A stretch of DNA of 64,000 bases from Candidatus Bathyarchaeota archaeon (lineage in GTDB: Archaea; Thermoproteota; Bathyarchaeia; TCS64): the NCBI GenBank assembly GCA_026014815.1, contig JAOZHP010000043.1, positions 11,931 through 75,930 on the forward strand, given 5' to 3'. Below are positions 22,634 to 38,501 of the stretch, piece by piece. The notes beneath the pieces are model-generated. The model was given only the letters and a program-made list of their open reading frames with translations, did no database searches and had not been told where the DNA came from. Every line of letters begins with the position of its first letter. Position 1 is the stretch's first letter. A program made the translations under genes and the position numbers.

Positions 22634-22720
22634 TGGTAGCCGGGGGGAAACCGGCTCCAAGGCACTATTCTAACTGGTTTCAGCACAAGTTCCATTATTT
22701 TTCAGTAAATCTTGGGAGGC
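22634..22720. repeat. outermost decayed copy of the tRNA-Gln 3' part plus the Rep-upstream block
   Basis: tggtagccgggggg...ggctccaagg matches the tRNA 3' end and anticodon region with an internal deletion. The following ctaactggtttcagc...cttgggagg is collinear with 26920-26985 and 34595-34650. Confidence 0.6.
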
Positions 22721-22789
22721 GTGAACCGGTTAAAACAAATATGGAAATAAATGGAATTAATAAAAGGTAAAAAATGTCGAAAGAATAGA

Positions 22790-23617
22790 TTAGGAGGTTT
22801 CGTGAGGTTCATCTGTATGGCATTGGGCGCAGTCGCTCTTAGCGTGAACGTTTGCGATGGGACCAGCGTCCCCGTGGCAGCCATTACAGGTTGTGACACT
22901 CACTGCGTCCTGGAAGACAGGCACGAAGTTGCCGTCCGTTACGGCGTTCAGCATCTCCGCTGCGCGGCCTGCAACCTCGGCGGTGAGTCTTCCACATCTT
23001 TCTTTCCTCTCGATTGATCCTGAGCCAAATCCTGATGCTTCACACCACTTGGTTACGGACACGTGGCATAGAGGTGAACCAGCTTCGGAGGTGGGTAGAT
23101 CCTCGTCAGTCTTTACTGCTACAGCAGGCTTCCATGTGGGGTATGCTGTTTCAGTGTATTCACCGACTAGCTCATTTACGGGCGAGAGGTCCGATGAAAC
23201 TAGGTTCATCGCCATTATTGCGCCGTTGATGGCTCCACATAGTGTTCCCCAGCCAACAGTTCCTCCTTTACCGTAGACCGCCATCTTTGTGGGGATACTG
23301 GTGTACGGGAATCCTACTTTTTCTTTGAGGCCTCCGATTATCGCCTCGAACGCCCCGTAGGAGCATCCTGACTCAAAGTAGGCGTTATAGGCTCTGTTCT
23401 TAACTTCCTCAACATCCAGTTTCTCGTATGTCCATGGATACTCAGGAACCTCCTGTGGGACCTCTACTTCAACTTCTACCTCGTTTGTGACTATGGTTTC
23501 CTTGGGAGGCATTATCGAGTAGCCTCCAACGGCACCAATCGCTAGTCCTCCAACGGCGGCTCCCGCCATCTTCATGAAGTCTCGTCTTGATACATTGTTC
23601 TCTGTCAATACTATCAC
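22790..23617 (-). CDS. Tat-signal C_GCAxxG_C_C-family protein with a C-terminal dihaem c motif
   Basis: 275 aa. SRRDFMKMAGAAVGGLA twin-arginine signal, GTLCGAINGA core, and two CxxCH motifs (CNGCH, CAQCH) in the last 35 aa. Confidence 0.65.
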   Translation of the reverse strand: MIVLTENNVSRRDFMKMAGAAVGGLAIGAVGGYSIMPPKETIVTNEVEVEVEVPQEVPEYPWTYEKLDVEEVKNRAYNAYFESGCSYGAFEAIIGGLKEKVGFPYTSIPTKMAVYGKGGTVGWGTLCGAINGAIMAMNLVSSDLSPVNELVGEYTETAYPTWKPAVAVKTDEDLPTSEAGSPLCHVSVTKWCEASGFGSGSIERKERCGRLTAEVAGRAAEMLNAVTDGNFVPVFQDAVSVTTCNGCHGDAGPIANVHAKSDCAQCHTDEPHETS

Positions 23618-23772
23618 CTAAGGGATAAAACGCAGTAATACGACCTTAGTATAAATTATTATTCATGTTTTTTTAGGCAAGACTAATGATTTTACTGCAT
23701 TGGAACTTAAAATCATATCCTCACACATCGAGGGGGAAAGAATATATCTGATGAAAAAAATCACATACTACT

Positions 23773-24240
23773 TTGACTCAAATCGATGAGCTAGACAAAA
23801 AGATTCTGGAGATACTCAAGCTGGATGGACGTGCACCGATCAGAGAGATCTCCAGACAGCTAGGTTCAAGTCCGGCAACGGTTTCACGAAAGATCAAACG
23901 AATGGAAGAAGCGAACATCATTAAGGGCTACGTCAGCATCGTGGAAGACGAAGAGGTGGGTAAAGGCTCACGCGCTGTGTTACTTGTGAAGACCACTGGT
24001 GATTATGATCAGAACCAGATTGTTGAAAAAGTCACACAGATGGATGATATCTGTAACGTGTTTCTTACCATGGGGAACTATGACATGATATTAACGGCGT
24101 GCACCAACAGCGAGGCCGAGTTATACAGGATGATAAAAAAGATACGAAGCACATCTGGCATTCTCTACGTGGACTCTACTACGATAGTCTCAAGGCGTAA
24201 AGTACTCAGCAAGATCGTCTCGGATAACAAAGAGCCATAA
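23773..24240 (+). CDS. Lrp/AsnC family transcriptional regulator
   Basis: 155 aa. LDELDKKILEILKLDGRAPIREISRQLGSSPATVSRKIKRMEEANIIKGY HTH plus a RAM domain. Confidence 0.85.
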   Translation: MTQIDELDKKILEILKLDGRAPIREISRQLGSSPATVSRKIKRMEEANIIKGYVSIVEDEEVGKGSRAVLLVKTTGDYDQNQIVEKVTQMDDICNVFLTMGNYDMILTACTNSEAELYRMIKKIRSTSGILYVDSTTIVSRRKVLSKIVSDNKEP

Positions 24241-24456
24241 ATAAACCGAAAAATCACAATTAACCTAAATCCACTTGTCCGGGTGTTTAGTAAATTCCTT
24301 CAACCAAAAATATATTTAATGAGTTGAGTTGGCAGGGAAAACGAAGCACTGACCCATAAAAACTTGAAAATAACATGACAAAGTCAAACCTTAAGCGATT
24401 TTATAACCAAAAAGCAATCATACAAGAAAAAAACAGCACTAATTCAAGCTTAAGTA

Positions 24457-24528
24457 TGGTTGCCCGGGGGAGATTCGAACTCACATCGGAGTGTCCAAAG
24501 CCCACCTTGTAGGCTGAAGGACCAGACT
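24457..24528 (-). pseudogene. decayed near-full-length tRNA-Gln copy
   Basis: The reverse complement AGTCTGGTCCTTCAGCCTACAAGGTGGGCTTTGGACACTCCGATGTGAGTTCGAATCTCCCCCGGGCAACCA aligns with the intact tRNA. It has a 4-nt deletion in the anticodon stem, a T-stem mismatch and a 1-72 mismatch. Confidence 0.6.
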
Positions 24529-24580
24529 TATCGGGGGACCTTTAAATCCGATAATAGTACGGGTGGAGCTTTAATTGGCT

Positions 24581-25072
24581 TCATCTCATATTCCTTTTCA
24601 GGAACTCGTGATACTGTTCAACATCCTTTCGTGGGAATGGGTTTACAACCGTGATCTCTCTGACTTTTTGGAGTTCTTTGTCGAGCGAGAACACGACTGT
24701 CGACCCGAGGCTCCTGGCGAGGGAGATGAGGTATCCATCCCATGACTCTATGCTGTAGGTCGAGGCGTAGTCAAGGGCATCCTGGGCCACCTGCGGCGAT
24801 ACGTGCGGGTAGAGGGCGGGTGATCCCGTTCTCAGGATGCCGCCGAGAATCTTTTTCACCGTCATCCTCGGGACCCGCAGGTATCGGGTGGCGACGTGGT
24901 ACGCTCCGATGATTGCTGTGATGGGTATCGCCGCTTGCTTCTTCTGAGTGAGCACGTCTGCGAGGAAGGCCGTGCTGTGCTCTTTTAGGGGGTTGTCGAA
25001 GCACGTGGGGACCAATATGCCCACGTCGACGACTCCGTCAGTGTAGGCCGAGTTTTCTCCGGGCGTACTCAC
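24581..25072 (-). CDS. vapC: PIN-domain toxin (VapC-like)
   Basis: 163 aa. Acidic PIN residues (VVDVG..., ESWDGY, SLDKEL). Overlaps the upstream antitoxin gene by 35 nt. Confidence 0.75.
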   Translation of the reverse strand: MSTPGENSAYTDGVVDVGILVPTCFDNPLKEHSTAFLADVLTQKKQAAIPITAIIGAYHVATRYLRVPRMTVKKILGGILRTGSPALYPHVSPQVAQDALDYASTYSIESWDGYLISLARSLGSTVVFSLDKELQKVREITVVNPFPRKDVEQYHEFLKRNMR

Positions 25073-25325
25073 TGCTCATCCACTTCCAGCTCTCGTCGGG
25101 CTCTTCGGTGAAGGCCTCGGCCCCGAGGCTCCTGGTGAGGTCCTCCCACTCCCGGACGTTTCTCTTGACGTCGTTGGAGACGGGCTCGATGATGACCCGG
25201 GAGCCGTCCAGCCTTATGGTCACCTCCCCCCCTCCCTTGAGGCCGAGGGCCTCCCGGAAGTGCGCGGGCAGGACCAGCCTTCCCTGTTTATCGATCGTCA
25301 CAGAATTTTCCATGTTTCCTACCAT
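25038..25325 (-). CDS. vapB: AbrB/SpoVT-type antitoxin (VapB-like)
   Basis: 95 aa. TIDKQGRLVLPAHFREALGLKGGGEVTI swapped-hairpin motif. Confidence 0.75.
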   Translation of the reverse strand: MVGNMENSVTIDKQGRLVLPAHFREALGLKGGGEVTIRLDGSRVIIEPVSNDVKRNVREWEDLTRSLGAEAFTEEPDESWKWMSSEYARRKLGLH

Positions 25326-25344
25326 ATGGCATAAGTCATGCCAT
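25326..25344. promoter_or_regulatory. perfect palindrome abutting the vapB start codon (candidate operator)
   Basis: atggcat-aagtc-atgccat. AbrB-type antitoxins autoregulate through such sites. Confidence 0.4.
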
Positions 25345-25392
25345 TGATAAAAGCGTTGAGAATATTAGGCTACCAATATGCAACCGAGATAA

Positions 25393-25446
25393 AAGTAGCT
25401 CCGGAGGAGACTCGGACTCCCGTTGGAGGGCCCAAAGCCCTCCATC
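25393..25446 (-). repeat. decayed copy of the tRNA-Gln 3' half (acceptor 3' strand, T arm, anticodon arm)
   Basis: aagtagctccggaggagactcggactcccgttggagggcccaaagccctccatc is collinear with 38367-38420. The anticodon loop CTTTGGG is retained and there is no 5' half. Confidence 0.6.
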
Positions 25447-25562
25447 TCGAACCCTTAAAGAAACTGATTTGATCAGGTTTTGTTAAGATGAATGAATTAA
25501 GAGATGAGAGAATGTTGAACTCATGGTTTAAGCCAATAGTCTTGATATTTTATATCTGACTC

Positions 25563-26093
25563 TCATTTCACGTTTCCGATTTTTAAGTTTTTTAGGATAT
25601 TCTGTAGCTCCGTTATTCTATCCGAGTTTAAACCATCCAATATTTTTTCTATATCCAGTACAAAGATTTTAGTCCTTTTCATTAATTTCTCTAAATCTAT
25701 ACTTATTTTTCGTGTATAATATTGCATCTCGATTCTGTCTTCTTTCGACTTCTTGAATTCCTGAATAATCTGAGGAGGAACGTCACGACCGAATAAATAT
25801 TCAAAGACCGCTATTGTGCAGTCATGAATCTCACACTTTACCCCGATCTTCAACAGCAATGCATAAACGGCAAAATATTTTGCATAATATCCAGCAGAGA
25901 CTGCCCATTCAATAATGCCTTCTTTTGCGTTGACCTCCATAGACTTCAAGGCGTTTCTTGACTTCTCTAGGTAAGCTCTCACCAAGTTTTCAGAGGGTTT
26001 GACTTGCCTTATGCCCCTATTTTGGTCTAGACACCATTTCAGGTATCTTTTATTGTCTTGCATTGTATCGCCACATGATTTCACAGTAATCAT
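25563..26093 (-). CDS. HEPN-domain protein (toxin of a HEPN-MNT pair)
   Basis: 176 aa. AVSAGYYAKYFAVYALLLKIGVKCEIHDCT matches the PF05168-type HEPN pattern. Overlaps the upstream MNT gene by 44 nt. Confidence 0.65.
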   Translation of the reverse strand: MITVKSCGDTMQDNKRYLKWCLDQNRGIRQVKPSENLVRAYLEKSRNALKSMEVNAKEGIIEWAVSAGYYAKYFAVYALLLKIGVKCEIHDCTIAVFEYLFGRDVPPQIIQEFKKSKEDRIEMQYYTRKISIDLEKLMKRTKIFVLDIEKILDGLNSDRITELQNILKNLKIGNVK

Positions 26094-26685
26094 CGATTCC
26101 CTTGAGGACTATGTGGTTTGAGACAACCTCCATTATTAATGGATCATTATCCATCAATCCGTTCAGAAACTGTTTCATGTTGGTGGACTTGATGTTTACT
26201 TCTCTATCGATCAGACTGCCGGTTTCTCTGATGCCGTCTGCATCGGGTTTTCTGTTGGATATAATGAAAAGGTCGATATCGCTTTCCTCGGTCATCTCTC
26301 CTTTGGCGAAGCTGCCGAATAGTACGGTCGTGCCCTCTAATTTATCTCCTGTTTCACTCATGAGCTTCTTTATCAGAAAATTCTTTTCAAGAAAACGTAT
26401 AGAGGCGAAGGTCTCTGCAAGAATCATATAATACTTTGCAACTAGATTGTCGAGTTTCAGGCGATATTCTTTATTCCTTCCCTTGACGATGCTGGAAAGA
26501 ACGTTGATATCTTCAAGCCTCCTCAACTGTAGCCCAACGGCTTTCACATCGACACCGACGTCCCTCGCAATCTCCCTCACGTGCAGAGACCTGCGGTAGT
26601 CGCCCAAGAAAAGTCCCAGAATCTTGAGCGTGGTCTTGTTAATGCTGTATTTTTCCATCATATGTAGTAACAATACAACAAGCAT
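26050..26685 (-). CDS. wHTH-minimal nucleotidyltransferase (MNT) protein
   Basis: 211 aa. N-terminal wHTH (SLHVREIARDVGVDVKAVGLQLRRLE) and the NTase motif LFGSFAKGEMTEESDIDLFI. Confidence 0.7.
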   Translation of the reverse strand: MLVVLLLHMMEKYSINKTTLKILGLFLGDYRRSLHVREIARDVGVDVKAVGLQLRRLEDINVLSSIVKGRNKEYRLKLDNLVAKYYMILAETFASIRFLEKNFLIKKLMSETGDKLEGTTVLFGSFAKGEMTEESDIDLFIISNRKPDADGIRETGSLIDREVNIKSTNMKQFLNGLMDNDPLIMEVVSNHIVLKGIDDYCEIMWRYNARQ

Positions 26686-26802
26686 TTAAAGGCACCTTAA
26701 AACACCGAGGAAAATAGAATAAGACCTCTTCATTCTCTCATATCAAAAAAAATCTTAGCTTTGAGTTAACATAAAAAGGAAGAGGGACGGAACCCATAAT
26801 CC

Positions 26803-26861
26803 GATGCATGCATTAGTCCGTTCATCACTTATTTGATGCATTTAAAAGAAAGAAGATGCAT
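26803..26861. repeat. three GATGCAT repeats (iteron-like)
   Basis: gatgcat at 26803, 26835 and 26855, just left of the att-like core and the Rep gene. Confidence 0.35.
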
Positions 26862-26894
26862 TGAAATTTTTCCCAAGCGTTTTCTATTACGTTT

Positions 26895-26993
26895 TGGTAG
26901 ACCGGGAGATACTGGGGCCCAGGTACTAACATAGTCTGGTTTCAGCTCTCAATTTCCTTCTTATTCAGCAATTCTAGGGGGTACTGTTCGCCC
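26895..26993. repeat. att-like core (tggtagaccgg) plus the conserved Rep-upstream block, copy 1
   Basis: Collinear with 34570-34657 and 22634-22720. Shared ggtactaa..ctggtttcagctctcaatttcc. Confidence 0.65.
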
Positions 26994-27943
26994 ATGTTAT
27001 GTCAAATCAAATTCAAAAGCCTTAGATTGGGTCATTATCGGGCTTTGCTTAGCTACGAAAACCCAGACCGAGAGAAGATAATTGATGCTTTCACATATTG
27101 GCCTAATTTCGTTGAGTACTTGGTATTCAGGAAAGAGAACATCTACACTTATGAGAAAGAATACAAGATGGCTAAGACCGCGAAACGTGGGAATGATGTT
27201 TATTCTGCTAAAGTGAGAAAACGGTTAAACTATCTCTATAATCTTCCTCAGATTGAATTCTTCAATTATAAAGATAGAAACAGGGTTCAGAAAACGAGGG
27301 CTGTATTTGTTACTCTGACTTATCGACGTGATGATCCTCTAGATATTCTCTGGAAAGAGGTTGGTAGGGATTTTAATCGGTGGATTAGCGGGTTACGGTG
27401 TAGATACAAGAAGATAGATGTTCTACGTTGTTGGGAAGCCCAGAGTGATGGTTACCCACATATTCACTGTGTCTTGCTTTTCCATGAAGTTAAGTTTGAT
27501 ACATTTTTTCATAATAATAATGGAGGGTTAAGGAAAAGGAGGCTTTAACAAAGAATTGGTGTTAGGGTTTCAGTGATGTATTTGCTTTGTACAGCCTTGG
27601 TGCTGGTGTAGGTTATGTAATGAAGTATGTTACGAAGGTTAATACTGCTTTACTTCAAGAAAACAAGAATCGTAAACTAGTTCTTTCTTTGGCTTTGAGG
27701 TGGATTTTCAAGAAACGTGCATTCTCAGTATCTAAGGCGTTTGGGTTATTTCTCGTTGAAGAGATAGATGATGGCCCACGTGGTCAGGTGGATCTCGAAG
27801 GAAAAACGATTTATCGTTGGGTTCTTGTCGGATTCTAGTCAGGAAATCTCGGAACATGGAATAGGGATTTGTCATTCAGAGAATATTGGATTATCTATTC
27901 ATCTGAATATTTTACCTTCAACAAAGTTTTGTTTTCTGATTAA
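26994..27943 (+). pseudogene. rep: HUH-superfamily rolling-circle Rep without a helicase domain, disrupted (one frameshift, two in-frame TAGs)
   Basis: Motif I VFVTLTY, motif II PHIHCVLLF (27459-27467 encodes HIH) and motif III GYVMKYVTK. Frame change in the aat-repeat near 27519. TAG at 27563 and 27836. The frame continues to TAA at 27941-27943. Confidence 0.75.
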
Positions 27944-28015
27944 ATTGTGTGTAGTCCAAGAATCATTTCATCAATTATCTATTTTGTTCGATAGTTTTTT
28001 TTAATAGTTAATAGA

Positions 28016-30010
28016 ATGAAAGATGGTGATATAATGCTCCTAGAGTCAGTTTGTGTTGATGGGTTTAGAACAATTTCTGAAAAATGTTCATTAAATGTCG
28101 ATCCAAAAATTACTGTTCTAATGGGTGCAAATGAGAGTGGAAAAACGAACTTATTACATGCAATAAAATATTTCAATTTTAATGAAAATATTCAGTTAAG
28201 TGATATTACAAAAACGGATACGACAAGATGGAGAAAAAAGATTTATCCAATAATTGAACTGATGTTTAGTTTAGATAAAAATGATATTGAAAAAGTGAAT
28301 GACATCATACCAAAACATATCGAAAGTAACAAAATTATTATTCAAAAAAAATTTAATGGAACAATAAATAAATATACAATAAAAATATCCGCTAAATTAA
28401 AAAGAGTAATATATAATAGTAAAATTGAGGAACTTAAAAGTGAAATAAAAAGTGAACAGATAAAATTAAAAAAGATGAATCGTTCAGTTAATACGTTGAA
28501 TGTAAACTTAATAAAACATAATTCAGAACTAGAAACAAAACCTAATCCTAGTGATTTACAAAAAATTCGTAGAAGAATTAGAAGAACTGAAAGAAACATA
28601 AAACAAAGAAATAATGAAAAAACAGAATTAATAATTGAACTAACAAGTAAGATGGACGTGATTAAAGATATAGAAAATGACATAGCAAATTTAAAAGATG
28701 AAATAATAAATATTGGGGATGAACAAATAAAACAATTATTTAATTTATTGCCAGAAATAATTTATATTGATAGAATTGAATATATTACTGATCAAATTCC
28801 AATACCTGAAATAATAAATCGAAATTCATATCGTGCGATAGCAATTGGAAATCTATTAAAAATTGGTGGAGTAAATGATTATGATACGTTAAATGAAAAT
28901 ATGAATAGGGTGAGAATTAATTTAGAACGAGCATCAGAATTAATAACAGAGAAATTTCTGAAAGTATGGAAGCAAGAACCAATAGAAATTTCATTATATA
29001 AAGAAGGAAACAACATAAACATAGAATTCAAAGAAAATATATCTATCGCGTCTCCTCCTGAAGAAAGAAGCCAAGGTTTTCAATGGTTTATATCGTTTTT
29101 TACAAACTACATAATTAATAATGAAGATATGAAGAAAAAAATAATTTTATTAGATGAACCAGCGCTTCAATTGCATCCTAGAGGTCAAAAAGATTTTGTA
29201 CAAATTCTTGAGGATATAGCAAACAATAATCAAATAATATATACAAGTCATTCTCCATTTTTGATTAATAGAAATTATCCTGATAGGATAAGATTAATAC
29301 ATAAAAAAGAAAATATCGGAACAACAATTATGAATAAACCCTATACGGATGGTAAGAGAAGATGTTGGGAACCATTAAAGTCTGCTATTGGGATTTGTTT
29401 AGGGGATTTATTTTCATTTGGAGAAACAAACATAATTGTAGAAGGATATTCTGATAAAATATTGATGTCTTTTGTATCAAATCAATTCGCAAAATTAGGC
29501 TTAGAACATATCGATTTAAACACTCACACAATATATCCAGCTGATGGTGCAGGTAATACACCATATATGGTCAAATTTGCGTTCGATTCAGGATTGAATC
29601 CATTAGCAGTAATTGATGCTGATGAAAATGGGATAAAGGCCAAGACGGTTATTGAAGAAAATCTTCCAGATTTTAATAAAATTATAATGTTATCCGAAAT
29701 TCTAAGTACAGCAAAAACTATTGAGGATTTATTACCTGTGGAAAAATATGTTGAATCTGTGAATAGTTATTATAGCAATGTTAGTATGGGAAAATATGAA
29801 AAAATTGATTATAAATTATTAGAAAAAATACCATGGAAAGAAATAGGTATAGTAAAACCAATAAAAGATCATTTGAAAAAATATGAGCATAAATTAAATA
29901 AAAATATGGTTATAAAAGAATATTTTAAATTATTCACAATAACAAATGAAAGCATTGAAGAATATGAGCCATTTAAACATCTTATTAGAAAAATAATTAC
30001 ACTTCTATAA
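28016..30010 (+). CDS. OLD-family ATPase-TOPRIM nuclease with a coiled-coil insertion
   Basis: 664 aa. Walker A GANESGKT, ERSQGFQW, Walker B KKIILLDEPALQLHP, IIYTSHSPF. TOPRIM motifs NIIVEGYSDK and AVIDADENG. A Lys/Glu/Asn-rich coiled coil of about 130 aa lies between Walker A and the signature motif. Confidence 0.75.
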   Translation: MKDGDIMLLESVCVDGFRTISEKCSLNVDPKITVLMGANESGKTNLLHAIKYFNFNENIQLSDITKTDTTRWRKKIYPIIELMFSLDKNDIEKVNDIIPKHIESNKIIIQKKFNGTINKYTIKISAKLKRVIYNSKIEELKSEIKSEQIKLKKMNRSVNTLNVNLIKHNSELETKPNPSDLQKIRRRIRRTERNIKQRNNEKTELIIELTSKMDVIKDIENDIANLKDEIINIGDEQIKQLFNLLPEIIYIDRIEYITDQIPIPEIINRNSYRAIAIGNLLKIGGVNDYDTLNENMNRVRINLERASELITEKFLKVWKQEPIEISLYKEGNNINIEFKENISIASPPEERSQGFQWFISFFTNYIINNEDMKKKIILLDEPALQLHPRGQKDFVQILEDIANNNQIIYTSHSPFLINRNYPDRIRLIHKKENIGTTIMNKPYTDGKRRCWEPLKSAIGICLGDLFSFGETNIIVEGYSDKILMSFVSNQFAKLGLEHIDLNTHTIYPADGAGNTPYMVKFAFDSGLNPLAVIDADENGIKAKTVIEENLPDFNKIIMLSEILSTAKTIEDLLPVEKYVESVNSYYSNVSMGKYEKIDYKLLEKIPWKEIGIVKPIKDHLKKYEHKLNKNMVIKEYFKLFTITNESIEEYEPFKHLIRKIITLL

Positions 30011-30046
30011 TATGGTATAAATGAACAATAATGCAATTTATGCAAA

Positions 30047-30082
30047 TGGCGGGGAAGGCGCGTAGCGGTGACCCGCCGCGAC
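30047..30082. other. isolated GC-rich hairpin-forming patch in AT-rich DNA
   Basis: tggcggggaaggcgcgtagcggtgacccgccgcgac. GGCGGG (30048-53) pairs with CCCGCC (30072-77). Confidence 0.4.
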
Positions 30083-30167
30083 TTGATATAGATGACTAAC
30101 TCAAACCAAGTTGAAGACGTGAATGGGGTTTTAACAAAATTATAATACTTAACGAGAAATAGGATTC

Positions 30168-30974: not shown

Positions 30975-31049
30975 GTTTTTCATTCAAAGGTGTCATTCTT
31001 GCACTAGAATAAGACCAGAAAGATATTCTAAACCGTGAGGCAGTGGTAA

Positions 31050-31199
31050 AACCATCCCGTCCAATTATTGACCTTTCAAAGAGATGAATCTGACTTCAGA
31101 ATTTTATCAAAAACTATCCGAAAAACGTCGATAGATGAACTGAAAAGTAGCAGATATTTACGTCTGGAGAATGGTAGCCCGGAACCTATTCGAGTCTAG
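31050..31199 (+). pseudogene. remnant homologous to the C-terminus of ORF 38051..38401, ending in an att-like core
   Basis: Translation NHPVQLLTFQRDESDFRILSKTIRKTSIDELKSSRYLRLENGSPEPIRV aligns with PHRTIIGPSARQEQDYVILQKTIKKTLLEELRNSTYLSCDSGSPGEIRTPV (about 21/48 identical). Confidence 0.55.
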
Positions 31200-31214
31200 A
31201 TGCGTCAGAATACT
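31172..31214. repeat. att-like core tggtagcccgg plus 24-bp direct repeat copy A
   Basis: Core at 31172-31182. cgagtctagatgcgtcagaatact at 31191-31214 recurs at 32647-32670. Confidence 0.6.
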
Positions 31215-31260
31215 TCTTATTACATTAATTTTATTATAATCTATAAATAGGGATTGTGGA

Positions 31261-32655
31261 TTGATTCTTATGAAAAATCGTAGTTTGCTTTTTTTTCTTA
31301 TCTTTATTTCGCTTTTACCCAATGTTCCTGTATCTTCAACATCAATCACATTTAATCAAGTTGATAGTCCTTGGGATGTTAGTTTTCCTTGGGAGCCACT
31401 ATCTTTTAGTGTTGAAATTGTAGATGGTGAAAAAGAAGTATCTAATATAACATTATTATATACAACTGAACCTAAGGAGAATCTCAATTTTATTCACGTC
31501 CCAATGAACCTTGTAAAAGGAAATTCCTACTCAGGGCTTTGGAATTATTCATTAGACGGATTTGGGGCAAACACCAGTCTATATTATGCTTATCAAATAA
31601 ATTATACAAAGGGTTATTCTCAAAGTCCTGTCCCAGACCTTGAAAATGCATATCTAAGGAAAATATATTACCCTAAGAATACAATAATAAATGTAAATTC
31701 TTTTAGAATCATAGAGATTAATCCTATAAAATTAACTGCTGATATTGAAATAAATGTCCATATAATCACTGGATCAATTTTAGAAGAAATCAGCATACAA
31801 ATAGGAAATCGAGTAAGAGACGGATACTTATCATCACTTGAATACGTGAATATACCAGTCATTCAAGGATGGCGATATAATTATATTGATACAATCAAAG
31901 TAAATGATTTAAAATTAACTGGAAATGCTTTTGAATATCCCTTTGATGATTATTACTTAGATATTTTTCTAAGATCATATTATTATGATGCCTCTAAATT
32001 CATGATACCTGAATCTTCTGTGAATATTTATGAACCCAGTAATCATGTATGGTCTATGGAACCAACCAAATTAACTATCAAGGATAATGAGGTTAATGGT
32101 TATTTTCAAATAAGTAGGCTAGGTCAAAATTCTCGTTTTGTTTTATTCCCTCTTTTAATTTGTAGCTTCTTATTGGGGTCAAGTCTATTAATCGATAATA
32201 AATATGACCTGAGAATACGCATGAGTCTGTATATCTCATCGATTTTCTTTATGTTAAAAACTTCTAATGATATTAGAAATTATGTGCCAACAAGAACTTT
32301 AGGAATAAGTTTCGCTGAAAATGCATATTTATTTGTCTCAATTTTTTTCGGCATTTATATAATTTCTACTATACTCGGATATTATCTTTATAATATAAAA
32401 CAAAACGAAGCTTTTCCACGACAATTTGACTTAATATCAGTAATTTTGTCAACATTAATATTCATTTTTTATCCAATCCTAAATCTATATTCAACAAACT
32501 ACACTCTTTATAACATGATTCCCACTTTCTGGATGAGGATCTTATTCATTTTTTCAATATCTTGGGGATTAATGATCCAAAGATTAAAGGAAAATGTATC
32601 AAGTTTTCAAACAAAAATAACCGATTATATTATTCATGAATCCAATCGAGACTAG
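31261..32655 (+). CDS. secreted/membrane protein: N-terminal signal, extracytoplasmic domain of about 290 aa, C-terminal multi-TM region
   Basis: 464 aa. LLFFLIFISLLPNVPVSS signal-like N-terminus and at least 5 hydrophobic helices after aa 300. Confidence 0.55.
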   Translation: MILMKNRSLLFFLIFISLLPNVPVSSTSITFNQVDSPWDVSFPWEPLSFSVEIVDGEKEVSNITLLYTTEPKENLNFIHVPMNLVKGNSYSGLWNYSLDGFGANTSLYYAYQINYTKGYSQSPVPDLENAYLRKIYYPKNTIINVNSFRIIEINPIKLTADIEINVHIITGSILEEISIQIGNRVRDGYLSSLEYVNIPVIQGWRYNYIDTIKVNDLKLTGNAFEYPFDDYYLDIFLRSYYYDASKFMIPESSVNIYEPSNHVWSMEPTKLTIKDNEVNGYFQISRLGQNSRFVLFPLLICSFLLGSSLLIDNKYDLRIRMSLYISSIFFMLKTSNDIRNYVPTRTLGISFAENAYLFVSIFFGIYIISTILGYYLYNIKQNEAFPRQFDLISVILSTLIFIFYPILNLYSTNYTLYNMIPTFWMRILFIFSISWGLMIQRLKENVSSFQTKITDYIIHESNRD

Positions 32656-32670
32656 ATGCGTTAGAATACT
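32647..32670. repeat. 24-bp direct repeat copy B
   Basis: cgagactagatgcgttagaatact (22/24 match to 31191-31214). Overlaps the stop codon of ORF 31261..32655. Confidence 0.55.
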
Positions 32671-32712
32671 ATGAATAAAAATGTTTAATATATTGATTTA
32701 TTGATTTTTTTC

Positions 32713-33318
32713 TCATGGTTTTTGGTTGTCTTTATAATTTTCCTTGAATAGCTTATTAAATTCGTCAAGTTGATTATTTGATTGTTGGTTACTCCATAAG
32801 ATCATTGGAAGTATGAGTATGGTTAATTGAATTGCTAGAGTAACCCCAAGCATGTTATCTGGTAATTTATTTAATTCAAAAAGGGCTGTAGCCATAGAGC
32901 CGATGACTAGATAACCGAGTCCTAATATGGCTACCGTCACATCATTTTTTTCTATTCCCCTTTGAAATGTTTTTGATAGATCAGATGCCCAGCTTTCCGA
33001 TACAGGTTCTTTATTTTCTAATAATCGATTGATCTCGAATCGAATTATTTGGCTTTCATAGTAATAGCTCATTCTCCAAAAATGACCTGCAACAACTGAC
33101 ATTGCTAGATAGGAACCAATGCCTAGGAGAGCTGGGAAATAATTGTAAGAAAGCTCTTTTTCTAAGATCAATCCTGCAGCAGTAAATAAGAAAGCAAAAG
33201 CTGCTTTGCCATAAGTCATGTCTCTATTGATTCCACGGTTTTGATTTAATGTGATTTCGTAAAGAGAGATTAGAGTGTCTTTAACGTCCTTAGTATCCAT
33301 AATGATATTGAGATACAA
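32713..33318 (-). CDS. 4-TM membrane protein (two helical hairpins separated by an amphipathic segment)
   Basis: 201 aa. TM hairpin AAFAFLFTAAGLIL / FPALLGIGSYLAMSVVAGHFW, then VTVAILGLGYLVIGSMATALF / LGVTLAIQLTILILPMILW. Confidence 0.55.
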   Translation of the reverse strand: MYLNIIMDTKDVKDTLISLYEITLNQNRGINRDMTYGKAAFAFLFTAAGLILEKELSYNYFPALLGIGSYLAMSVVAGHFWRMSYYYESQIIRFEINRLLENKEPVSESWASDLSKTFQRGIEKNDVTVAILGLGYLVIGSMATALFELNKLPDNMLGVTLAIQLTILILPMILWSNQQSNNQLDEFNKLFKENYKDNQKP

Positions 33319-33368
33319 AATTATAAATAAATTTAGTTAATTATTCAGTATATAATTGCATATAGTAA

Positions 33369-33379
33369 ATGGTAGCCCG
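33369..33379. repeat. att-like core tggtagcccgg
   Basis: aatggtagcccggaa is identical over 15 nt to the copy at 31170. Lies between the TIR and 4-TM genes. Confidence 0.55.
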
Positions 33380-33414
33380 GAAGAGATCGAATACTTCGTT
33401 TAATTTTACCGGTT

Positions 33415-34242
33415 TTATGAGAATGTTTTATTGATCTCTTCAGCGATGAGATCGAAATCAAGTGGTGTAGATACGGGTAGTCCTTGAATGTACTCAAGTA
33501 TTCCTGGGATTTTTTTCATCATCAATATGGGATAGATTGGCACATTTTTCGCTATGGCGTATCCACATTCTTGGTGAGGCCAAGCTCGCATTCTGAAATT
33601 CTTTGTTACCCATGCTACTAAACCAATGCATTCATCAAGTCTCTGGATGATCTCGTCCTTCCATTCCTCGCCTATATCGATTGTATCGTGGGCTCTAAAT
33701 ACTCTGTAATTATATTTTTCCTCTAGAATGTCACATAATTTGCCTACATCTTTTTTATCTTTATTAGCATAACTCATGAATATTAAATTACTATTTTGTG
33801 GTGATTTCTTTAGTGATAAATAATCAGTATAAACATCTAAATTTTGTTCATTGAAACTATAATCTTTACCGCTCAATAGGTTTTCTATATCTTTAATATA
33901 ATTCTCTACGTCACTTAGGGGACCATGTTGTTTTAATTCTTCTTCTAGAAGTAACTTATGGACTTTTAAGCTGCCCCCTATTATCTCTAACACTGTATCT
34001 AATTCTCTTTTTCTTATTCTATGAAAACTCCATTTTTCTGTTTGAAAATATGTTGACTCAACATAATTTAATCCGTTTATTAATTCACGCCTCTTTTTTT
34101 CGAGTGCCTGTTGCACTATGCCTGTTGTGATGCTCTGTTTTAACTCGAAATATTCGTTAATTTTATTCTTGGTTTCTTTGATGGCGTTATGCATGATTGT
34201 GCGATTGGGTTCCCTGAAATTCAGATTCCAATAGTTAGACAT
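33415..34242 (-). CDS. TIR-domain protein with an N-terminal helical domain
   Basis: 275 aa. C-terminal LIFMSYANKDKKDVGKLCDILEE...FRAHDTIDIGEEWKDEI...VAWVTKNFRMRAWPHQECGYA matches the bacterial TIR pattern (F-x-S-Y start, W-x-x-x-E catalytic Glu region). Confidence 0.65.
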   Translation of the reverse strand: MSNYWNLNFREPNRTIMHNAIKETKNKINEYFELKQSITTGIVQQALEKKRRELINGLNYVESTYFQTEKWSFHRIRKRELDTVLEIIGGSLKVHKLLLEEELKQHGPLSDVENYIKDIENLLSGKDYSFNEQNLDVYTDYLSLKKSPQNSNLIFMSYANKDKKDVGKLCDILEEKYNYRVFRAHDTIDIGEEWKDEIIQRLDECIGLVAWVTKNFRMRAWPHQECGYAIAKNVPIYPILMMKKIPGILEYIQGLPVSTPLDFDLIAEEINKTFS

Positions 34243-34569
34243 CTCAATTTCCTTGATGTTTTATGTTCTATTTAAAATTAATATTTATGATAAAGGGAAA
34301 CTTACATCTGCATTTTCGGCAAAGGCTACTATACTTTAGAGATCACAACACTGGAAGCTGAATGGGTGATAGTTGGAATAAGCCAACTAGTGCCTAAATA
34401 AAACCCACAAACAGAATGGAATCAGACATAAAATTCGTCTTTGTGTCGAGTTGCAAATGCTCCGAGGATCATCGCCGCGAATATTAAGAGCCAACCCAAA
34501 AAACTATCGTACAGGAAGCCGCCGGCTAGAGCCATAATTACGGAGAGTACTCCTAGGGGCCGTTGAGAA

Positions 34570-34657
34570 TGGTAGCCCGGGTGATATTGGGGTCTAGGTA
34601 CTAATCTAGCTGGTTTCAGCTCTCAATTTCCTTTCTTCTACAGCAATTCTAGGAGGT
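34570..34657. repeat. att-like core plus the conserved Rep-upstream block, copy 2
   Basis: tggtagcccgggtgatattggggtctaggtactaatctagctggtttcagctctcaatttcc is collinear with 26895-26993. Confidence 0.65.
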
Positions 34658-35003
34658 ATGTTTGCCCATGTTATGTCAAATCATGTTCCCAAGCCTAGAT
34701 TTGGATACTATGGAGCATTTCTAAGCTATGAAATGCCAGACCTAGATGCAATAATAGAGGCTTTCATTTACTGGTCTAACTTCATAGAATACTTGGTATT
34801 CAGAAAAGAAAATATCCACACCTATGAAAAAACATACAAAGTGGAAGGCCGCCAAACGTGGGAATGATGTTAATATTTGGAAACTGAAAAATCGATTACG
34901 TCACCTGAATAAACCGCCCCAGATCGAGTTCTTCAATTTTAAAGATCGCAGTAAAATTCAAAGGACTAGGGCGGTGTTTATGACATTGACTTTTTTTCAA
35001 TAA
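34658..35003 (+). pseudogene. rep: 5' remnant of a second HUH Rep copy (frameshifted, truncated just after motif I)
   Basis: YWSNFIEYLVFRKENIHTYEKTYK, then after a 2-nt deletion KAAKRGNDV...PQIEFFNFKDRSKIQRTRAVFMTLTFFQ and a stop. Homologous to 26994-27325. Confidence 0.65.
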
Positions 35004-35032
35004 AGCATTATTTTCTGACTAAGTTTGTGGAT

Positions 35033-35839
35033 TTAGGGTACTAGTGTTAAGGTTATTACGGTTTTATCCCAATAAGGTTCTCCGATTTCAACATTCATTA
35101 TTTTATCGGATTGTGGTTCAACGAAGATCAGACCTGAATCTGTTGTTTCGAAGGCAATAATTGCGTGACCTGGACCGCCTGGGAATTCCATGGTTACAAA
35201 GAAACATCGGTACCCGTTTTCGAAAGCGTTTTGTTTCACAATTGCTGCAAAATCATCACAATCAAAATACATTTCTTCGTATTGTAGTTGGTCGGTTTTG
35301 TCTTTTCTAAGGAATTCTTTCATTTCGGCGTAAGTGGGGTCTCGTATTTGCCACCCAGTTGTTGAGAATCCTTCGGTAAAGCCAGTGTCATATCCAGAAT
35401 CGTAACCAGAATCATAGCCAGTTTCTTCTCCTATATGGTATCCTTCAATGTAACCTGATTCGGTTCCGACATCATATCCAATAACGTATCCTGTTTGGTT
35501 TCCAAAAGTCCAGCCAACGTCCCAGCCGTAGTTTTTTCCATCAGAGTATCCTGCTTCATAACCTTCTATTTTTCCTGTGTCTGTTCCTTCTAACAGCCCT
35601 TTCTCATATCCAAGAGAGTATCCCAGATCGATACCTACTTGTTTACCAGTATATTGACCTGCTAAAAAACCAATAATTGAAAAAACGATTATAGCAATGA
35701 TTGTAACTTTGTATGATTTGGTTGGTTTATCGTCGTTGTTTTTAATTTCACGATATGATTTTTTATATTTATTATTTTTAAAGAAATTTGTAATTGAATT
35801 GATATTATTTGCTTCTTTTTGAGGGAGATTGATCTCCAT
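35033..35839 (-). CDS. membrane-anchored transglutaminase-like cysteine protease with a GY-repeat linker
   Basis: 268 aa. TM VTIIAIIVFSIIGFLAG, roughly 95 aa of (G/E/D)xGY repeats, and C-terminal FDCDDFAA...GPGHAIIAF...VEPQSD (Cys-His-Asp pattern). Confidence 0.55.
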   Translation of the reverse strand: MEINLPQKEANNINSITNFFKNNKYKKSYREIKNNDDKPTKSYKVTIIAIIVFSIIGFLAGQYTGKQVGIDLGYSLGYEKGLLEGTDTGKIEGYEAGYSDGKNYGWDVGWTFGNQTGYVIGYDVGTESGYIEGYHIGEETGYDSGYDSGYDTGFTEGFSTTGWQIRDPTYAEMKEFLRKDKTDQLQYEEMYFDCDDFAAIVKQNAFENGYRCFFVTMEFPGGPGHAIIAFETTDSGLIFVEPQSDKIMNVEIGEPYWDKTVITLTLVP

Positions 35840-35958
35840 TTTCGTTCATTCTCATCAAGAGTGTTTAATGTTATAGCTTTTTGAGAGCGGGGGTATGTAT
35901 CTGAACTCCATAATGTGTATAATTAATTGAAACTTTATTGACTTGTCAGTGAATCAAT

Positions 35959-36807
35959 TTGATGATGAGAGATGCGAAAGTTGGTAGTATTATCGCAACG
36001 TTGTTTGGTGGCTGTTTTTTAATAGCTATTTGTTTTGTCGTTATTTTTTATCCTCCTCAATTTTTCGGTATGGATCTTTTCACGCCTTCAAGTGGAAACA
36101 ATATTGCATCCGATCAAACGATTGAACCTGAACCTGTGGTAGAATCTTCTATTGAAGAAAGTGTTGAAGAAGAAAACGCAATCGATATTGAAGAAATTGA
36201 TTTTGTAAGTATAGAAGAGGCAATTACTGATTTAGAAAAATCAGGGTGTGTTATTACAGAAGTTGATGATTTATCGGGTTATCCTGATAGTAGGATTTTT
36301 TTAGAGTATGATGAGTTCAAAAAAATTGCTGTTAAGGAGGAAATTGTATTTTTATTAACAGTTGAAGAGCATAGTGTTTTGTTTATCCCATATGAAAATT
36401 CGCATATTACTTGGTTCCCAGATGAACCAGCTGACGAGGAATCCGATAAAACTCCAGCTGAAAGATTGGTGATTCAGACTGGATATGGTACTTATGATAG
36501 TGAATCCACATCATGGCTTATCACATTAAAAGTAAAAAACGAGGGAAATTCGGATGTAGTAATCAAATCAGCATTTCTAAATGACATCCCCTGTGAAATT
36601 TTAAAATATGGTATAGATTCTGTTCCTATTGATAATTGGGGTACAAGTTTTCCCAGTACGGGAATTCCACTGGAAAGTGGGAAAACAGTTAATGTTTATT
36701 ATTATATCGATGTTGGGTATGCATCATTTACATCAGGCACAACAATAAATACAAAATTGACAAGTGAAAGGGGAACAGTAATTATCAAGTTAATACGTTT
36801 ACCCTAA
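35959..36807 (+). CDS. membrane-anchored protein with an acidic linker and a beta-rich C-terminal domain
   Basis: 282 aa. TM IIATLFGGCFLIAICFVVIFY, a Glu-rich linker, and a C-terminal ...WLITLKVKNEGNSDVVIKSAFLND... Ig-like strand pattern. Confidence 0.5.
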   Translation: MMMRDAKVGSIIATLFGGCFLIAICFVVIFYPPQFFGMDLFTPSSGNNIASDQTIEPEPVVESSIEESVEEENAIDIEEIDFVSIEEAITDLEKSGCVITEVDDLSGYPDSRIFLEYDEFKKIAVKEEIVFLLTVEEHSVLFIPYENSHITWFPDEPADEESDKTPAERLVIQTGYGTYDSESTSWLITLKVKNEGNSDVVIKSAFLNDIPCEILKYGIDSVPIDNWGTSFPSTGIPLESGKTVNVYYYIDVGYASFTSGTTINTKLTSERGTVIIKLIRLP

Positions 36808-36878
36808 ATCTATTTTTGTGTTTTTATGAGGTTGGTAGGGTAGATACTTAGTACGAGAAGATTCTAATGCATAATTAT

Positions 36879-37046
36879 CAAGTGGATCTTGAAGGTGAAT
36901 CGATATACAAGTGGTATCTTATCGGGTTCAGGTCTGACCTGAACGGAACATATGAATCATGGAGTGTGGATTTGTCTTATAAGGAATTTTGGTGTATTCG
37001 TTCATCCGAATATTTTACATTCAACAAATCAATTTTTTCGGATTAG
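36879..37046 (+). pseudogene. rep: 3' remnant of the second Rep copy
   Basis: QVDLEGESIYKWYLIGFRSDLNGTYESWSVDLSYKEFWCIRSSEYFTFNKSIFSD aligns with 27785-27943 of copy 1. Confidence 0.6.
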
Positions 37047-37128
37047 TATAACATATGAAATTCAACTAATGTGAGATGTACAAAAAAGTACCAATAAATT
37101 CTTTTACTAACTCACTGATTTTAACATT

Positions 37129-37707
37129 ATGAGCGTTGAGATTCCACCACAACTATTCGATAATTTAGCGAAAGGTGAAGAAGTAAAAAGGACCTTGAAA
37201 ACTAGAAGCCTCTTGAACATACCAGAATTCACTTTTTTAACAGATAGGAGAGTGATATATTACAATCAAAAAATATTGGGACGTTTCGATTTAATTGACA
37301 TCCCTTATTCCCGACTGTCTGGTATGAAAGCAGAACGAGGAATGATAGCTTATGGTACGATGTCATTTACAAGTGAGGATGGTGACGAGATATCATTAAA
37401 ACGAATACCAAAGGACGAGATTGAGAATTTTGTTATGGCGTTAGAAGTTGCTATCAATAATGTTGCAGTGGAAGCTATCAGAATTAAACGTAAAAAAGGA
37501 CTTGCAGGAAAAATGATCTGGGAATTTAATAAAAGTGCTGAAATGATATTCAAGTCAAGACCTCCAGAAAGTAATGCTTTATCGTATCAATCACAAGGAC
37601 AACAAAATCAGAATGCTGATCCTCTTAACGAGTTAAAACTGAGGTTAGCGCGGGGAGAAATCACAGTGGAAGAATATCTTGAAATGGAAAAAATATTCAA
37701 AGCTTAA
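37129..37707 (+). CDS. bacterial-type PH (DUF304-like) domain protein with a C-terminal SHOCT motif
   Basis: 192 aa. FTFLTDRRVIYYNQKILGRFDLIDIPYSRLSGM (bPH pattern). C-terminal LNELKLRLARGEITVEEYLEMEKIF (SHOCT pattern). Confidence 0.6.
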   Translation: MSVEIPPQLFDNLAKGEEVKRTLKTRSLLNIPEFTFLTDRRVIYYNQKILGRFDLIDIPYSRLSGMKAERGMIAYGTMSFTSEDGDEISLKRIPKDEIENFVMALEVAINNVAVEAIRIKRKKGLAGKMIWEFNKSAEMIFKSRPPESNALSYQSQGQQNQNADPLNELKLRLARGEITVEEYLEMEKIFKA

Positions 37708-37717
37708 TGATTTCATT

Positions 37718-38032
37718 ATGAATTTCAATTTTCTGAATGCGATATTGCTAGGAATTCCGGTAACAGCGATAGTACTTTGGATTGTAGTCCAATATTTTCC
37801 AGGATATAGTAAAATTAGTATAACTAATTCATTTTATGTTGCTTCAGTATCCTTTTTATCAAACCTTTTTTTAGATCTTTTCAATATCGCGTTATCCCAA
37901 ATTTTCACCATTTTTATTATGGGTTATATGTTGAAACAAAATTCGAGATTGGATTGGGTTAGAGCATTGTTTATTTCCGTTATTGTGTTTTTTATTTCGT
38001 CTTTTTTCATTGTGATATCAGCGTTTATTTGA
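37718..38032 (+). CDS. small 3-TM membrane protein
   Basis: The ATG at 37718 lies in frame within track ORF 37679..38032. Hydrophobic throughout. Confidence 0.45.
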   Translation: MNFNFLNAILLGIPVTAIVLWIVVQYFPGYSKISITNSFYVASVSFLSNLFLDLFNIALSQIFTIFIMGYMLKQNSRLDWVRALFISVIVFFISSFFIVISAFI

Positions 38033-38050
38033 TGGTCATACATTGCGTGC

Positions 38051-38401
38051 ATGGTGAGACACGTTACAGACACATTCAACGATATGCAAAGCGTAGGAAT
38101 AGAATACATACGGGAAATCTATCGAAACTCAGGTCTAAGCATACGACCACAAACCAAGATAAACAAAATAGAACCCCTGAAAGGCGTGATAATGGCACTA
38201 GGATTAGACCCAAACGAGGTACTAAGCCGTGAAGCAATGGTCAAACCACACCGGACAATCATTGGCCCAAGCGCAAGACAAGAACAAGATTACGTGATAT
38301 TACAAAAAACCATCAAAAAAACCCTATTAGAAGAGCTCAGAAATAGCACATATCTGAGCTGTGACAGTGGTAGCCCGGGGGAGATTCGAACTCCCGTCTG
38401 A
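38051..38401 (+). CDS. hypothetical element-end protein whose 3' end overlaps tRNA-Gln antisense
   Basis: 116 aa. The last 35 nt overlap the tRNA 3' end. A diverged copy of its C-terminal 49 aa recurs at 31050-31199, in front of another att-like core. Confidence 0.45.
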   Translation: MVRHVTDTFNDMQSVGIEYIREIYRNSGLSIRPQTKINKIEPLKGVIMALGLDPNEVLSREAMVKPHRTIIGPSARQEQDYVILQKTIKKTLLEELRNSTYLSCDSGSPGEIRTPV

Positions 38402-38442
38402 GGCTCCAAAGGCCCCCATCCTTGTCCGCTAGACGACCGGGC
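38367..38442 (-). tRNA. tRNA-Gln (anticodon UUG), CCA encoded
   Basis: Reverse complement AGCCCGGTCGTCTAGCGGACAAGGATGGGGGCCTTTGGAGCCTCAGACGGGAGTTCGAATCTCCCCCGGGCTACCA. 76 nt, folded by hand: 7-bp acceptor with archaeal-Gln A1-U72, anticodon loop CTTTGGA, T loop TTCGAAT. Confidence 0.9.
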
Positions 38443-38501
38443 TATGCGCACCCAAAAAACGCGTCACGAAGTTATAAATCTATCAAACCTAACCAACAAA
38501 C

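Follow-up and report, generated by a model that had tools for sequence, protein, structure and literature searches.

Elements that use tyrosine recombinases are known to form arrays by re-use of one site, and a rolling-circle Rep has been described in one cryptic integrated element of Thaumarchaeota (PMC6563490). A mobilome survey of Bathyarchaeia covers viruses, and the term "rolling" is absent from it (PMC10848311). Here we describe an array at a tRNA gene in a 64-kb stretch of DNA from Candidatus Bathyarchaeota archaeon (contig JAOZHP010000043.1); this whole stretch is called the window, and all coordinates without a locus label are positions in it. The part at 22.6-38.4 kb, hereafter the island, is very probably a graveyard of mobile elements that arose by serial tyrosine-recombinase integration, between the attachment (att) sites attP and attB, at the 3' end of a tRNA-Gln(UUG) gene. 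Two of its elements, A and B, are, judging from their sequences, what remains of small rolling-circle plasmids whose family occurs mainly in Bathyarchaeia. Repeated site-specific integration at the tRNA 3' end had already been proposed in a preliminary description of this DNA, and it is supported by the homology between A and B, by intact relatives, by integrase stumps and by independent att stacks at other loci.

The array is anchored at the sole tRNA gene detected by ARAGORN in the 64-kb window, tRNA-Gln(UUG), which lies at 38368-38443 on the minus strand and matches Rfam RF00005 (55.5 bits, E 8e-10) with all four stems paired; the gene had been recognized before, at coordinates off by one (38367-38442). 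Read on the plus strand, its 3' end is TGGTAGCCCGG. When up to one mismatch is allowed, this motif is present seven times, each time on the plus strand; four of the occurrences are exact (31172, 33370, 34570 and 38368) and three have a single mismatch (22634, 24457 and 26895). The chance level for this motif at the same stringency was taken from 100 dinucleotide-preserving shuffles, in which the mean was 0.67 and seven copies were reached in 0/100. The recurrences first noticed at 34570, 31172 and, with one mismatch, 26895 are therefore confirmed, while the one placed at 33369 really begins at 33370.

Outside the tRNA gene, seven same-strand copies of its 3' end can be listed (22634, 24457, 25393, 26895, 31172, 33370 and 34570). 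In a gapped alignment the copy at 24457 covers 71/76 nt of the tRNA, with 25/26 matches over its first 26 nt, and the copy at 25393 (25395 in the alignment) covers 52 nt, namely acceptor 3' strand, T arm and anticodon arm. The others are short and 3'-anchored, with aligned lengths of 23 nt at 33370, 19 nt at 34570, 15 nt at both 22634 and 26895, and 11 nt at 31172. A stem-by-stem check upheld the two longer, decayed copies as they had been described: the copy at 24457 has lost its anticodon stem by deletion and has one disrupted pair in the T stem, and at 25393 the T and anticodon stems are 10/10 paired, one compensatory change being among them. Neither of these pseudo-copies is found as a tRNA by Rfam at E<=10. 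Taken one by one the short copies are weak, since their alignment scores are 20-29 and the 99th percentile is 21; they were accepted because of their exact 3' anchoring, their common strand and, at 22634, 26895 and 34570, the plasmid-derived arm that follows them.

The tRNA gene and the parts of A and B on which the reading depends are the following (GC, guanine plus cytosine).
38368-38443, minus strand: intact tRNA-Gln(UUG) with encoded CCA; the attB-bearing gene and right boundary of the island.
26895-31171, plus strand: element A, relic integrative rolling-circle plasmid as judged from comparison; left att copy with one mismatch; GC 31%.
26994-27940, plus strand: rep of element A, full-length HUH Rep gene with one frameshift between 27521 and 27545 (Pfam PF23343, 8e-9).
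30051-30109, plus strand: candidate double-strand origin (dso) of A, a nested GC hairpin followed by GACTTGATA; inner stem mutated.
30983-31184, plus strand: integrase 3' stump of A, ~65 codons with a stop and a frameshift; abuts the core at 31172 (profile E 4e-14).
34570-38367, plus strand: element B, likewise a putative relic integrative rolling-circle plasmid and the copy nearest the tRNA; left att copy an exact 12-nt core; GC 35%.
34673-34994, plus strand: rep pseudogene of element B, codons 1-108, with an internal frameshift (tblastn with the Rep of locus L001).
34995-36878, no strand assigned: 1.9-kb segment in place of B rep codons ~109-262 (tblastn, translations).
36879-37043, plus strand: rep pseudogene of element B, codons 263-317 (tblastn, 65% identity).
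38039-38380, plus strand: tyrosine-integrase 3' stump of B, last ~102 codons, running through the att core; Phe at the position of the catalytic Tyr.

Self-comparison shows that A (26895-31182) and B (34570-38378), each of them bounded by cores, are homologous in three blocks: the left end (26895-27321 and 34570-34992, 76% identity), the 3' end of rep (27784-27942 and 36878-37045) and the last ~200 nt (30986-31182 and 38180-38378), the last of which is coding in both. By tblastn, amino acids 9-181 of the Rep of A are encoded at 27024-27542 and amino acids 175-317 at 27521-27940 in another frame; the 5' part of the B gene is similarly broken, amino acids 1-57 lying at 34673-34843 and 43-108 at 34797-34994 in different frames. 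Element B is also homologous to loci L005, L011, L012 and L018 (L numbers designate loci of relatives). In a comparison of the att copy, the arm and the first 108 codons of rep, A shows 79-80% identity to L012, L015 and L019 and 74% to B, and the best match of B over the same region is L005 (76%). Since A is nearer to elements of other metagenomes than to B, a local duplication is unlikely; the two appear to have been acquired independently.

The ~88-nt non-coding arm between core and rep start (26906-26993 in A, 34581-34672 in B) is also present in L005, L011, L012, L018, L019, L055 and L057. It is better kept than rep itself, with a mean identity of 84.7% versus 73.5% and a higher value in 36/36 pairs. 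This suggests that the arm may be a functional non-coding element, which might serve as arm sites for the integrase, as promoter or leader of rep, or as the source of an antisense RNA.

The stumps at the right ends of A and B link both elements to tyrosine integrases. That of B (38039-38353) is 43% identical to residues 472-573 of the 573-residue L029 integrase (tblastn, E 1.7e-21), reaches a profile E of 4.9e-60 and is close to the C-terminus of the L057 integrase, and the open reading frame (ORF) 38051-38401 reads through the core. Within the window the stump profile finds only the A and B copies and none at the other five att copies, and neither tblastn nor a profile detects remnants of the other, L020-type integrase. 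From the location of the stumps at the tRNA-proximal ends it follows that A and B would once have carried their own integrase there and lost all of it except the 3' end. The attP core is situated at or beyond the extreme 3' end of the integrase gene (int), and no int fragment is found after the distal att copies.

The Rep family comprises 93 homologues of ~317 amino acids that belong to PF23343 and give weak Pfam Rep_1 co-hits; 31 rep loci were found, mostly in metagenome-assembled genomes of Bathyarchaeia. His154/His156 (HUH) and Tyr206/Lys209/Tyr210 (YxxKY) are invariant in 12 homologues, and the window copies are pseudogenes. A non-coding origin block of ~60 nt is ~85% conserved among elements with otherwise unrelated cargo (the window, L001, L012, L020, L054 and L057); in folding predictions it forms a hairpin, after which CTTGATA, within GACTTGATA, is left unpaired. 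In the window it carries two substitutions in the inner stem, which would be in line with general decay. In the integrated elements the block is found 1-3 kb inward of the junctions (window 30051-30109; L001 11845; L020 10603; L057 6013). We take CTTGATA to be the nick motif of pC194/phiX174-type Reps, which is consistent with the invariant HUH and YxxKY motifs, and the nick site would then be CTTG/ATA. In the catalogues, IMG/VR holds no relatives of this Rep family and PLSDB one match, of 26% identity only. Rep-Arvir (PMC13107129) was considered as a member of the same family and rejected, as its DUF7845 is a different family.

A modified core was observed in L012 (~175-190 and 2878-2887) and also in L013-L017, where TGGTAG is replaced by ACTTGATAAT in the context of CCTAACTTGATAAT followed by CCCGG. 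In these loci ACTTGATAAT duplicates 10 nt of the origin nick region of the same element. The swap may represent an illegitimate junction made by Rep, or an att-less, non-integrative derivative.

The architecture that is broken in the window is intact, or paralleled, in several relatives. In L020 the att repeat is 28 nt long with 100% identity, rep starts ~80 nt inward of the distal copy, the origin block lies in the interior, and a 382-residue integrase (PF00589, E 5.6e-22) ends 18 nt from a tRNA-Arg(CCU). In L057 att cores upstream of rep are followed by cargo, the origin block and an integrase that reads into the 3' end of an opposite-strand tRNA-Gln(CUG); the identity block is 15 nt, and the element has a GC content of 33.5% versus 55-56% in its flanks. 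This integrase is 47% identical to the 573-residue PF00589 protein of L029, whose type gives a weak match to Pfam Phage_integr_3 ('Archaeal phage integrase'). L057 as a whole serves as the template for the window subtype. Locus L054 is a contig of 5203 bp whose two ends overlap exactly over 30 nt and in which int is followed by 107 nt and then rep; it is probably a free circle of 5.17 kb, because the int-107 nt-rep junction would be expected only in the free form. At least eight other loci also have an integrase homologue, at a distance of 3-5 kb from rep. L001 and L002 have an intact Rep and no integrase, and are located at tRNA-Leu(UAG) with three identical 26-nt cores; an att-bounded interval of L001 (8789-9898) contains PIN/VapB only. 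Similar att stacks have formed independently in L001, L019, L050 and L057.

Other candidates for free attP forms were rejected: L003 is 100% identical to the integrated L001, L050-L053 have two tRNA-Leu cores and no int, and L019 is another array. Nor could L011, L012 and L018 be accepted as circles, since they have no terminal overlap. Distant Reps (34% identity) were seen beside tRNA-Gln in L038 (9808-10660, on the closed Bathyarchaeota chromosome OY970340.1) and in L045 (7069-10707), with a geometry different from that of the window subtype, the tRNA being upstream of rep on the same strand; in L045 the 3' half of the tRNA is present once more, 160 nt ahead of rep. In P0065, a 1339-bp ENA contig, a chimeric ORF joins Rep residues ~27-139 in-frame with the catalytic C-terminus of an integrase of the L020 type (HTLRHWKATMLYH...GHKTINHTLKYIQL); either a rep-int deletion across the plasmid or a chimeric assembly may have produced it.

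We propose that at least three insertions, with left ends at 22634, 26895 and 34570, came from one AT-rich family of integrative rolling-circle plasmids of ~4.6-7 kb. The intact circle would have the order integrase gene (its last codons reaching or crossing attP), attP core, ~90-nt arm, HUH rep, cargo, origin and more cargo, and the attP core would be identical to the tRNA discriminator plus the acceptor 3' strand. Crossover in a core of ~8-12 nt would set rep beside the distal att copy and int beside the regenerated tRNA, with the displaced tRNA 3' end moved outward. Each newcomer would insert between the tRNA body and the previous element, building a stack whose order of arrival we infer. 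Subsequent decay would have frameshifted the rep of A, gutted that of B, reduced int to its 65-110 3' codons and mutated the origin hairpin. What is left over would be the cargo, mostly defence or addiction genes: the OLD-family nuclease, the TIR protein and two toxin-antitoxin pairs, along with membrane proteins. These genes may persist through selection or because addiction makes them hard to lose. To judge from its sequence, the locus is now a fossil array, in which no element appears able to replicate or integrate alone.

Regarding the point of exchange, the tRNA-Gln-type members diverge from the tRNA directly after CCCGG to the right of the distal core, alike across hosts (L005, L018, L057, A and B), and to the left of the core TGG is missing in some hosts (L011, L015, L019, L055 and L057). 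The crossover would thus most likely fall within TAGCCCGG, that is, within discriminator and acceptor 3' strand. Members at tRNA-Leu and tRNA-Arg have identity blocks of 26-28 nt that reach the T arm, and the contrast with the short Gln cores suggests that the two integrase types use different sublocations.

By length, the att copies of the window form at least three classes (11-23 nt, 52 nt and 71 nt), which indicates that more than one element type used tRNA-Gln. The 52- and 71-nt pseudo-tRNA copies point to att arms of other element types, whose integrases would have longer identity blocks. With its intact stems and compensatory change, the copy at 25393 looks like a functional tRNA-Gln of another lineage that was imported by an element, rather than a decayed resident gene. 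A further site at 16181-16206 on the plus strand, GTGGATTAGCAAGGGGGAGATTAAC, resembles the tRNA-Gln 3' end plus T arm, matches at 14/16 positions over TAGCCCGGGGGAGATT and has the same strand as the other copies; it lies inside the 3' end of a membrane-protein ORF (16173-16625, minus strand). The site may be a very old att remnant, the eighth, in which case the island edge would move 6.4 kb further left, or it may be a chance match (~0.03 expected, by estimate).

In base composition the island stands apart from its surroundings, with a GC content of 24-38% over 27-38 kb versus ~50% in the flanks, in agreement with the AT-richness reported for 27.9-38.0 kb. Across 26.9-38.4 kb the values are 30-36%, and the exceptions within the island are 22.6-24.5 kb (45%) and 24.5-25.4 kb (56%). 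The GC contrast between inserted DNA and host is also seen in relatives in three other hosts, making four hosts with that of the window. The cargo classes recognized by Pfam, PADLOC and NCBIfam are Rep, OLD, TIR, PIN with MazE/AbrB, HEPN with nucleotidyltransferase, a Tat-signal cytochrome-like protein and Lrp, so that the accessory cargo first described between the copies (toxin-antitoxin pairs, Rep, OLD, TIR and membrane proteins) is borne out. The remaining segments and the cargo genes are listed below.
22634-24456, plus strand: outermost confirmed segment; one-mismatch core plus ~80 nt of the plasmid rep-upstream arm (22634-22715); GC 45%.
22790-23617, minus strand: Tat-signal split-Soret-cytochrome-like protein (Pfam C_GCAxxG_C_C, NCBIfam).
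23773-24240, plus strand: Lrp regulator (Pfam, NCBIfam).
24457-25392, plus strand: segment with a near-full-length pseudo-tRNA-Gln (24457-24528) as left edge, by alignment; GC 56%.
24581-25072, minus strand: PIN protein, paired with the next gene in the 24457 segment.
25038-25325, minus strand: MazE/AbrB protein of this pair.
25393-26894, plus strand: segment with a 52-nt pseudo-tRNA-Gln (25395-25446) as left edge, by alignment.
25563-26093, minus strand: HEPN protein, paired with the next gene in the 25393 segment (Pfam).
26050-26685, minus strand: nucleotidyltransferase of this pair (Pfam).
28016-30010, plus strand: OLD-family ATPase plus TOPRIM nuclease, defence cargo of A (Pfam AAA_15 2.8e-22 and OLD-like_TOPRIM; PADLOC AriA, Old, GajA-like).
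30168-30974, plus strand: 268-residue ORF beside OLD, with a VDFL...IIECK motif read by eye in the translation.
31172-33369, plus strand: segment C, with an exact 11-nt core and a degenerate arm.
31261-32655, plus strand: 464-residue multi-pass membrane protein in segment C (translation).
32713-33318, minus strand: 201-residue membrane protein in segment C (translation).
33370-34569, plus strand: segment D, with an att copy of 23 tRNA-like nt and one gap; a TIR protein is the only cargo.
33415-34242, minus strand: TIR-domain protein (Pfam TIR_2 6.8e-12; weak ThsB-like matches in PADLOC and NCBIfam).
35033-35839, minus strand: Gly/Tyr-rich membrane protein (weak Yae1_N and phrog_4785 matches).
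35959-36807, plus strand: 282-residue N-terminally anchored protein (translation).
37129-37707, plus strand: bPH_3 plus SHOCT protein, cargo of B (Pfam).
37679-38032, plus strand: 117-residue membrane protein, cargo of B (translation); cargo block 37129-38032.

In the outermost segment the arm at 22634 shares 73% identity with element B and 78% with L011, and no rep follows it. The cytochrome-like and Lrp genes lie between this plasmid left end (22634-22715) and the 24457 copy, so that their acquisition is plausible, if unproven; they are not carried by any relative. A parallel exists in L057, where an amidohydrolase gene of host-like GC lies between att remnants. The 22790-23617 protein matches the NCBIfam model 'split-Soret cytochrome c' with E 3e-60 and 204 bits, under the 400-bit cutoff; the model name hints at a protein of the Desulfovibrio type, and such a protein would be an unusual constituent of an island in a bathyarchaeon.

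Within element A, the 268-residue ORF (30168-30974) has no match in Pfam, PADLOC, NCBIfam or a PDB sequence search; by its motif, recognized by eye only, it may be a PD-(D/E)xK-type nuclease, and 28016-30974 may be a two-gene defence system together with OLD. Homologues of the Gly/Tyr-rich protein of element B, 35-40% identical, adjoin rep in L050-L053. For the unannotated cargo ORFs, searches of PADLOC, PHROGs, NCBIfam and PDB sequences gave nothing informative. In segment C, a coreless second copy (85%) of the arm that follows the 31172 core (repeat family D12) is found at 32638-32670, at the 3' end of the 464-residue ORF, and may be a further eroded att junction within the segment. This arm type is also found immediately left of the core in L005-L010.

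Serial integration was weighed against other explanations of the same features. The HUH Rep itself might insert the plasmids, through a rolling-circle process of IS91/Helitron-like type or because the tRNA 3' end mimics its nick site, in which case an integrase would be unneeded. The lack of an integrase in the window elements, L001, L005 and L050 would fit such a process, as would the constant position of att ~80-100 nt upstream of rep and the L012-L017 cores, in which a copy of the origin nick region has taken the place of TGGTAG. However, the CTTGATA block is found inside the elements, 1-3 kb from their junctions, which means that the element ends are not at the nick site. Moreover, relatives carry PF00589 integrases beside att, the window elements retain integrase stumps, and direct repeats of 11-28 nt that match the tRNA perfectly make up the junctions, the signature of conservative site-specific recombination. 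Insertion by Rep thus appears very improbable, and its IS91/Helitron-like form with att as the origin was rejected as the main mechanism on the grounds of the internal origin block and the integrases. We give slightly less credit still to a segmental duplication of the tRNA-proximal region followed by divergence, with no independent insertions. A and B do share the same end architecture in the same orientation 7.7 kb apart, but the identities given above (A 79-80% to elements of other metagenomes versus 74% to B, and B nearest to L005 at 76%) speak against it, the cargo of the seven segments is unrelated, and the att arms are of differing types and lengths.

It is somewhat less improbable, although still unlikely, that the short single-module segments are mini-cassettes without rep and int that were moved in trans by plasmid integrases, the locus being integron-like. 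Four units of ~1-1.5 kb have no rep or int debris (24457-25393, 25393-26895, 33370-34570 and L001 8789-9898), the L001 unit is associated with three 26-nt cores at 100% identity, and an origin by decay would take two deletions for each unit, ending at or near att sites. On the other hand, none of them recurred at another location, and circular forms were not detected; the arms of the units are unlike the plasmid arm and unlike each other in what is a small sample, and the units are also accounted for by decay together with selection for cargo that is addictive or defensive. If mini-cassettes were nevertheless real, small integrative plasmids would shuttle defence cassettes between Bathyarchaeia.

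Serial integration by tyrosine recombinases remains the reading that we favour, and a number of observations count against it. No intact integrase or recombinase was detected in the 64-kb window when all ORFs of at least 180 amino acids were scanned, so that integration here is deduced from relatives and stumps rather than observed. The L057 integrase contains one apparent frameshift, and the circularity of L054 was read from its 30-nt terminal overlap alone. Segments C and D and the two toxin-antitoxin segments have no rep or int debris, their assignment to any element family being made by att copies and arms alone. The genes at 22.8-24.2 kb are near host GC (45%) and could be chromosomal ones trapped by rearrangement. 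Finally, scans with the GNAT flank (genome and metagenome contigs) and with the exact tRNA-Gln (metagenome contigs) gave no match, and thus no empty site or excision junction. The best GNAT homologues have 46% identity, and exact-sequence look-ups of three window proteins returned no record. The Cbf5 protein of the window reaches 80-81% identity at best and 73-76% to named matches, which are mostly Candidatus Bathyarchaeota (one is labelled 'archaeon' and one is binned as Armatimonadetes); the homologues with 80% identity (P0101, P0103 and P0105) are encoded on contigs of 42-63 kb.

Bathyarchaeia are among the most abundant archaea in sediments and are uncultivated, and we know of no genetic tools for them. 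Through comparison, all the functional parts of the plasmid family have been mapped: Rep, candidate origin, attP core, and two integrase types that differ in their tRNA targets (Gln, Leu and Arg). The family is therefore a natural start for shuttle and integration vectors and for tracing gene flow in Bathyarchaeia. The island is an illustration that genes for defence and toxin-antitoxin systems can survive the plasmids by which they arrived, so that a tRNA gene turns into a defence island.

Tandem integration at a tRNA gene is already known, and the value of the locus is that of an example and a family, with no new principle; the family of small integrative rolling-circle plasmids is apparently uncatalogued. 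The closest systems are the archaeal tRNA-gene arrays of Sulfolobales, Thermococcales, Methanococcales and Thaumarchaeota, including the pT26-2 family and the elements of PMC6563490. They share with the window insertion into the 3' part of a tRNA with regeneration of the gene, direct repeats, site re-use, deviant composition and decay into islands. The window differs in its bathyarchaeal host, in its very small HUH-Rep plasmids without a relative in IMG/VR or, apart from the 26% match, in PLSDB, and in the presence at one gene of at least seven remnants and at least three att length classes with no intact integrase.

Among rolling-circle replicons, the pC194/pUB110 and phiX174 types share the HUH and YxxKY motifs, the weak Rep_1 co-hits and a hairpin followed by an unpaired CTTGATA, which we presume to be the nick motif. 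In contrast to the classical Gram-positive rolling-circle plasmids, the window family encodes a tyrosine integrase and has a tRNA-derived attP, and its Rep is at most 26% identical to any catalogued plasmid Rep. As in SSV-type integration, an archaeal tyrosine recombinase acts on a tRNA gene and the int frame runs across the core in the window and L057. However, few codons lie beyond the core, so that a short C-terminal tail is swapped and the enzyme is not split into N- and C-terminal parts; in L029 and L020 the int stop codon comes before the core. The IMEX elements (CTXphi/RS1 arrays at dif, using the host XerCD) are likewise small HUH-Rep replicons in tandem, many copies of which have no recombinase of their own. 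In the present family the target is instead the tRNA 3' end, intact members encode a PF00589 integrase, and the int-less window copies A and B still carry its stumps.

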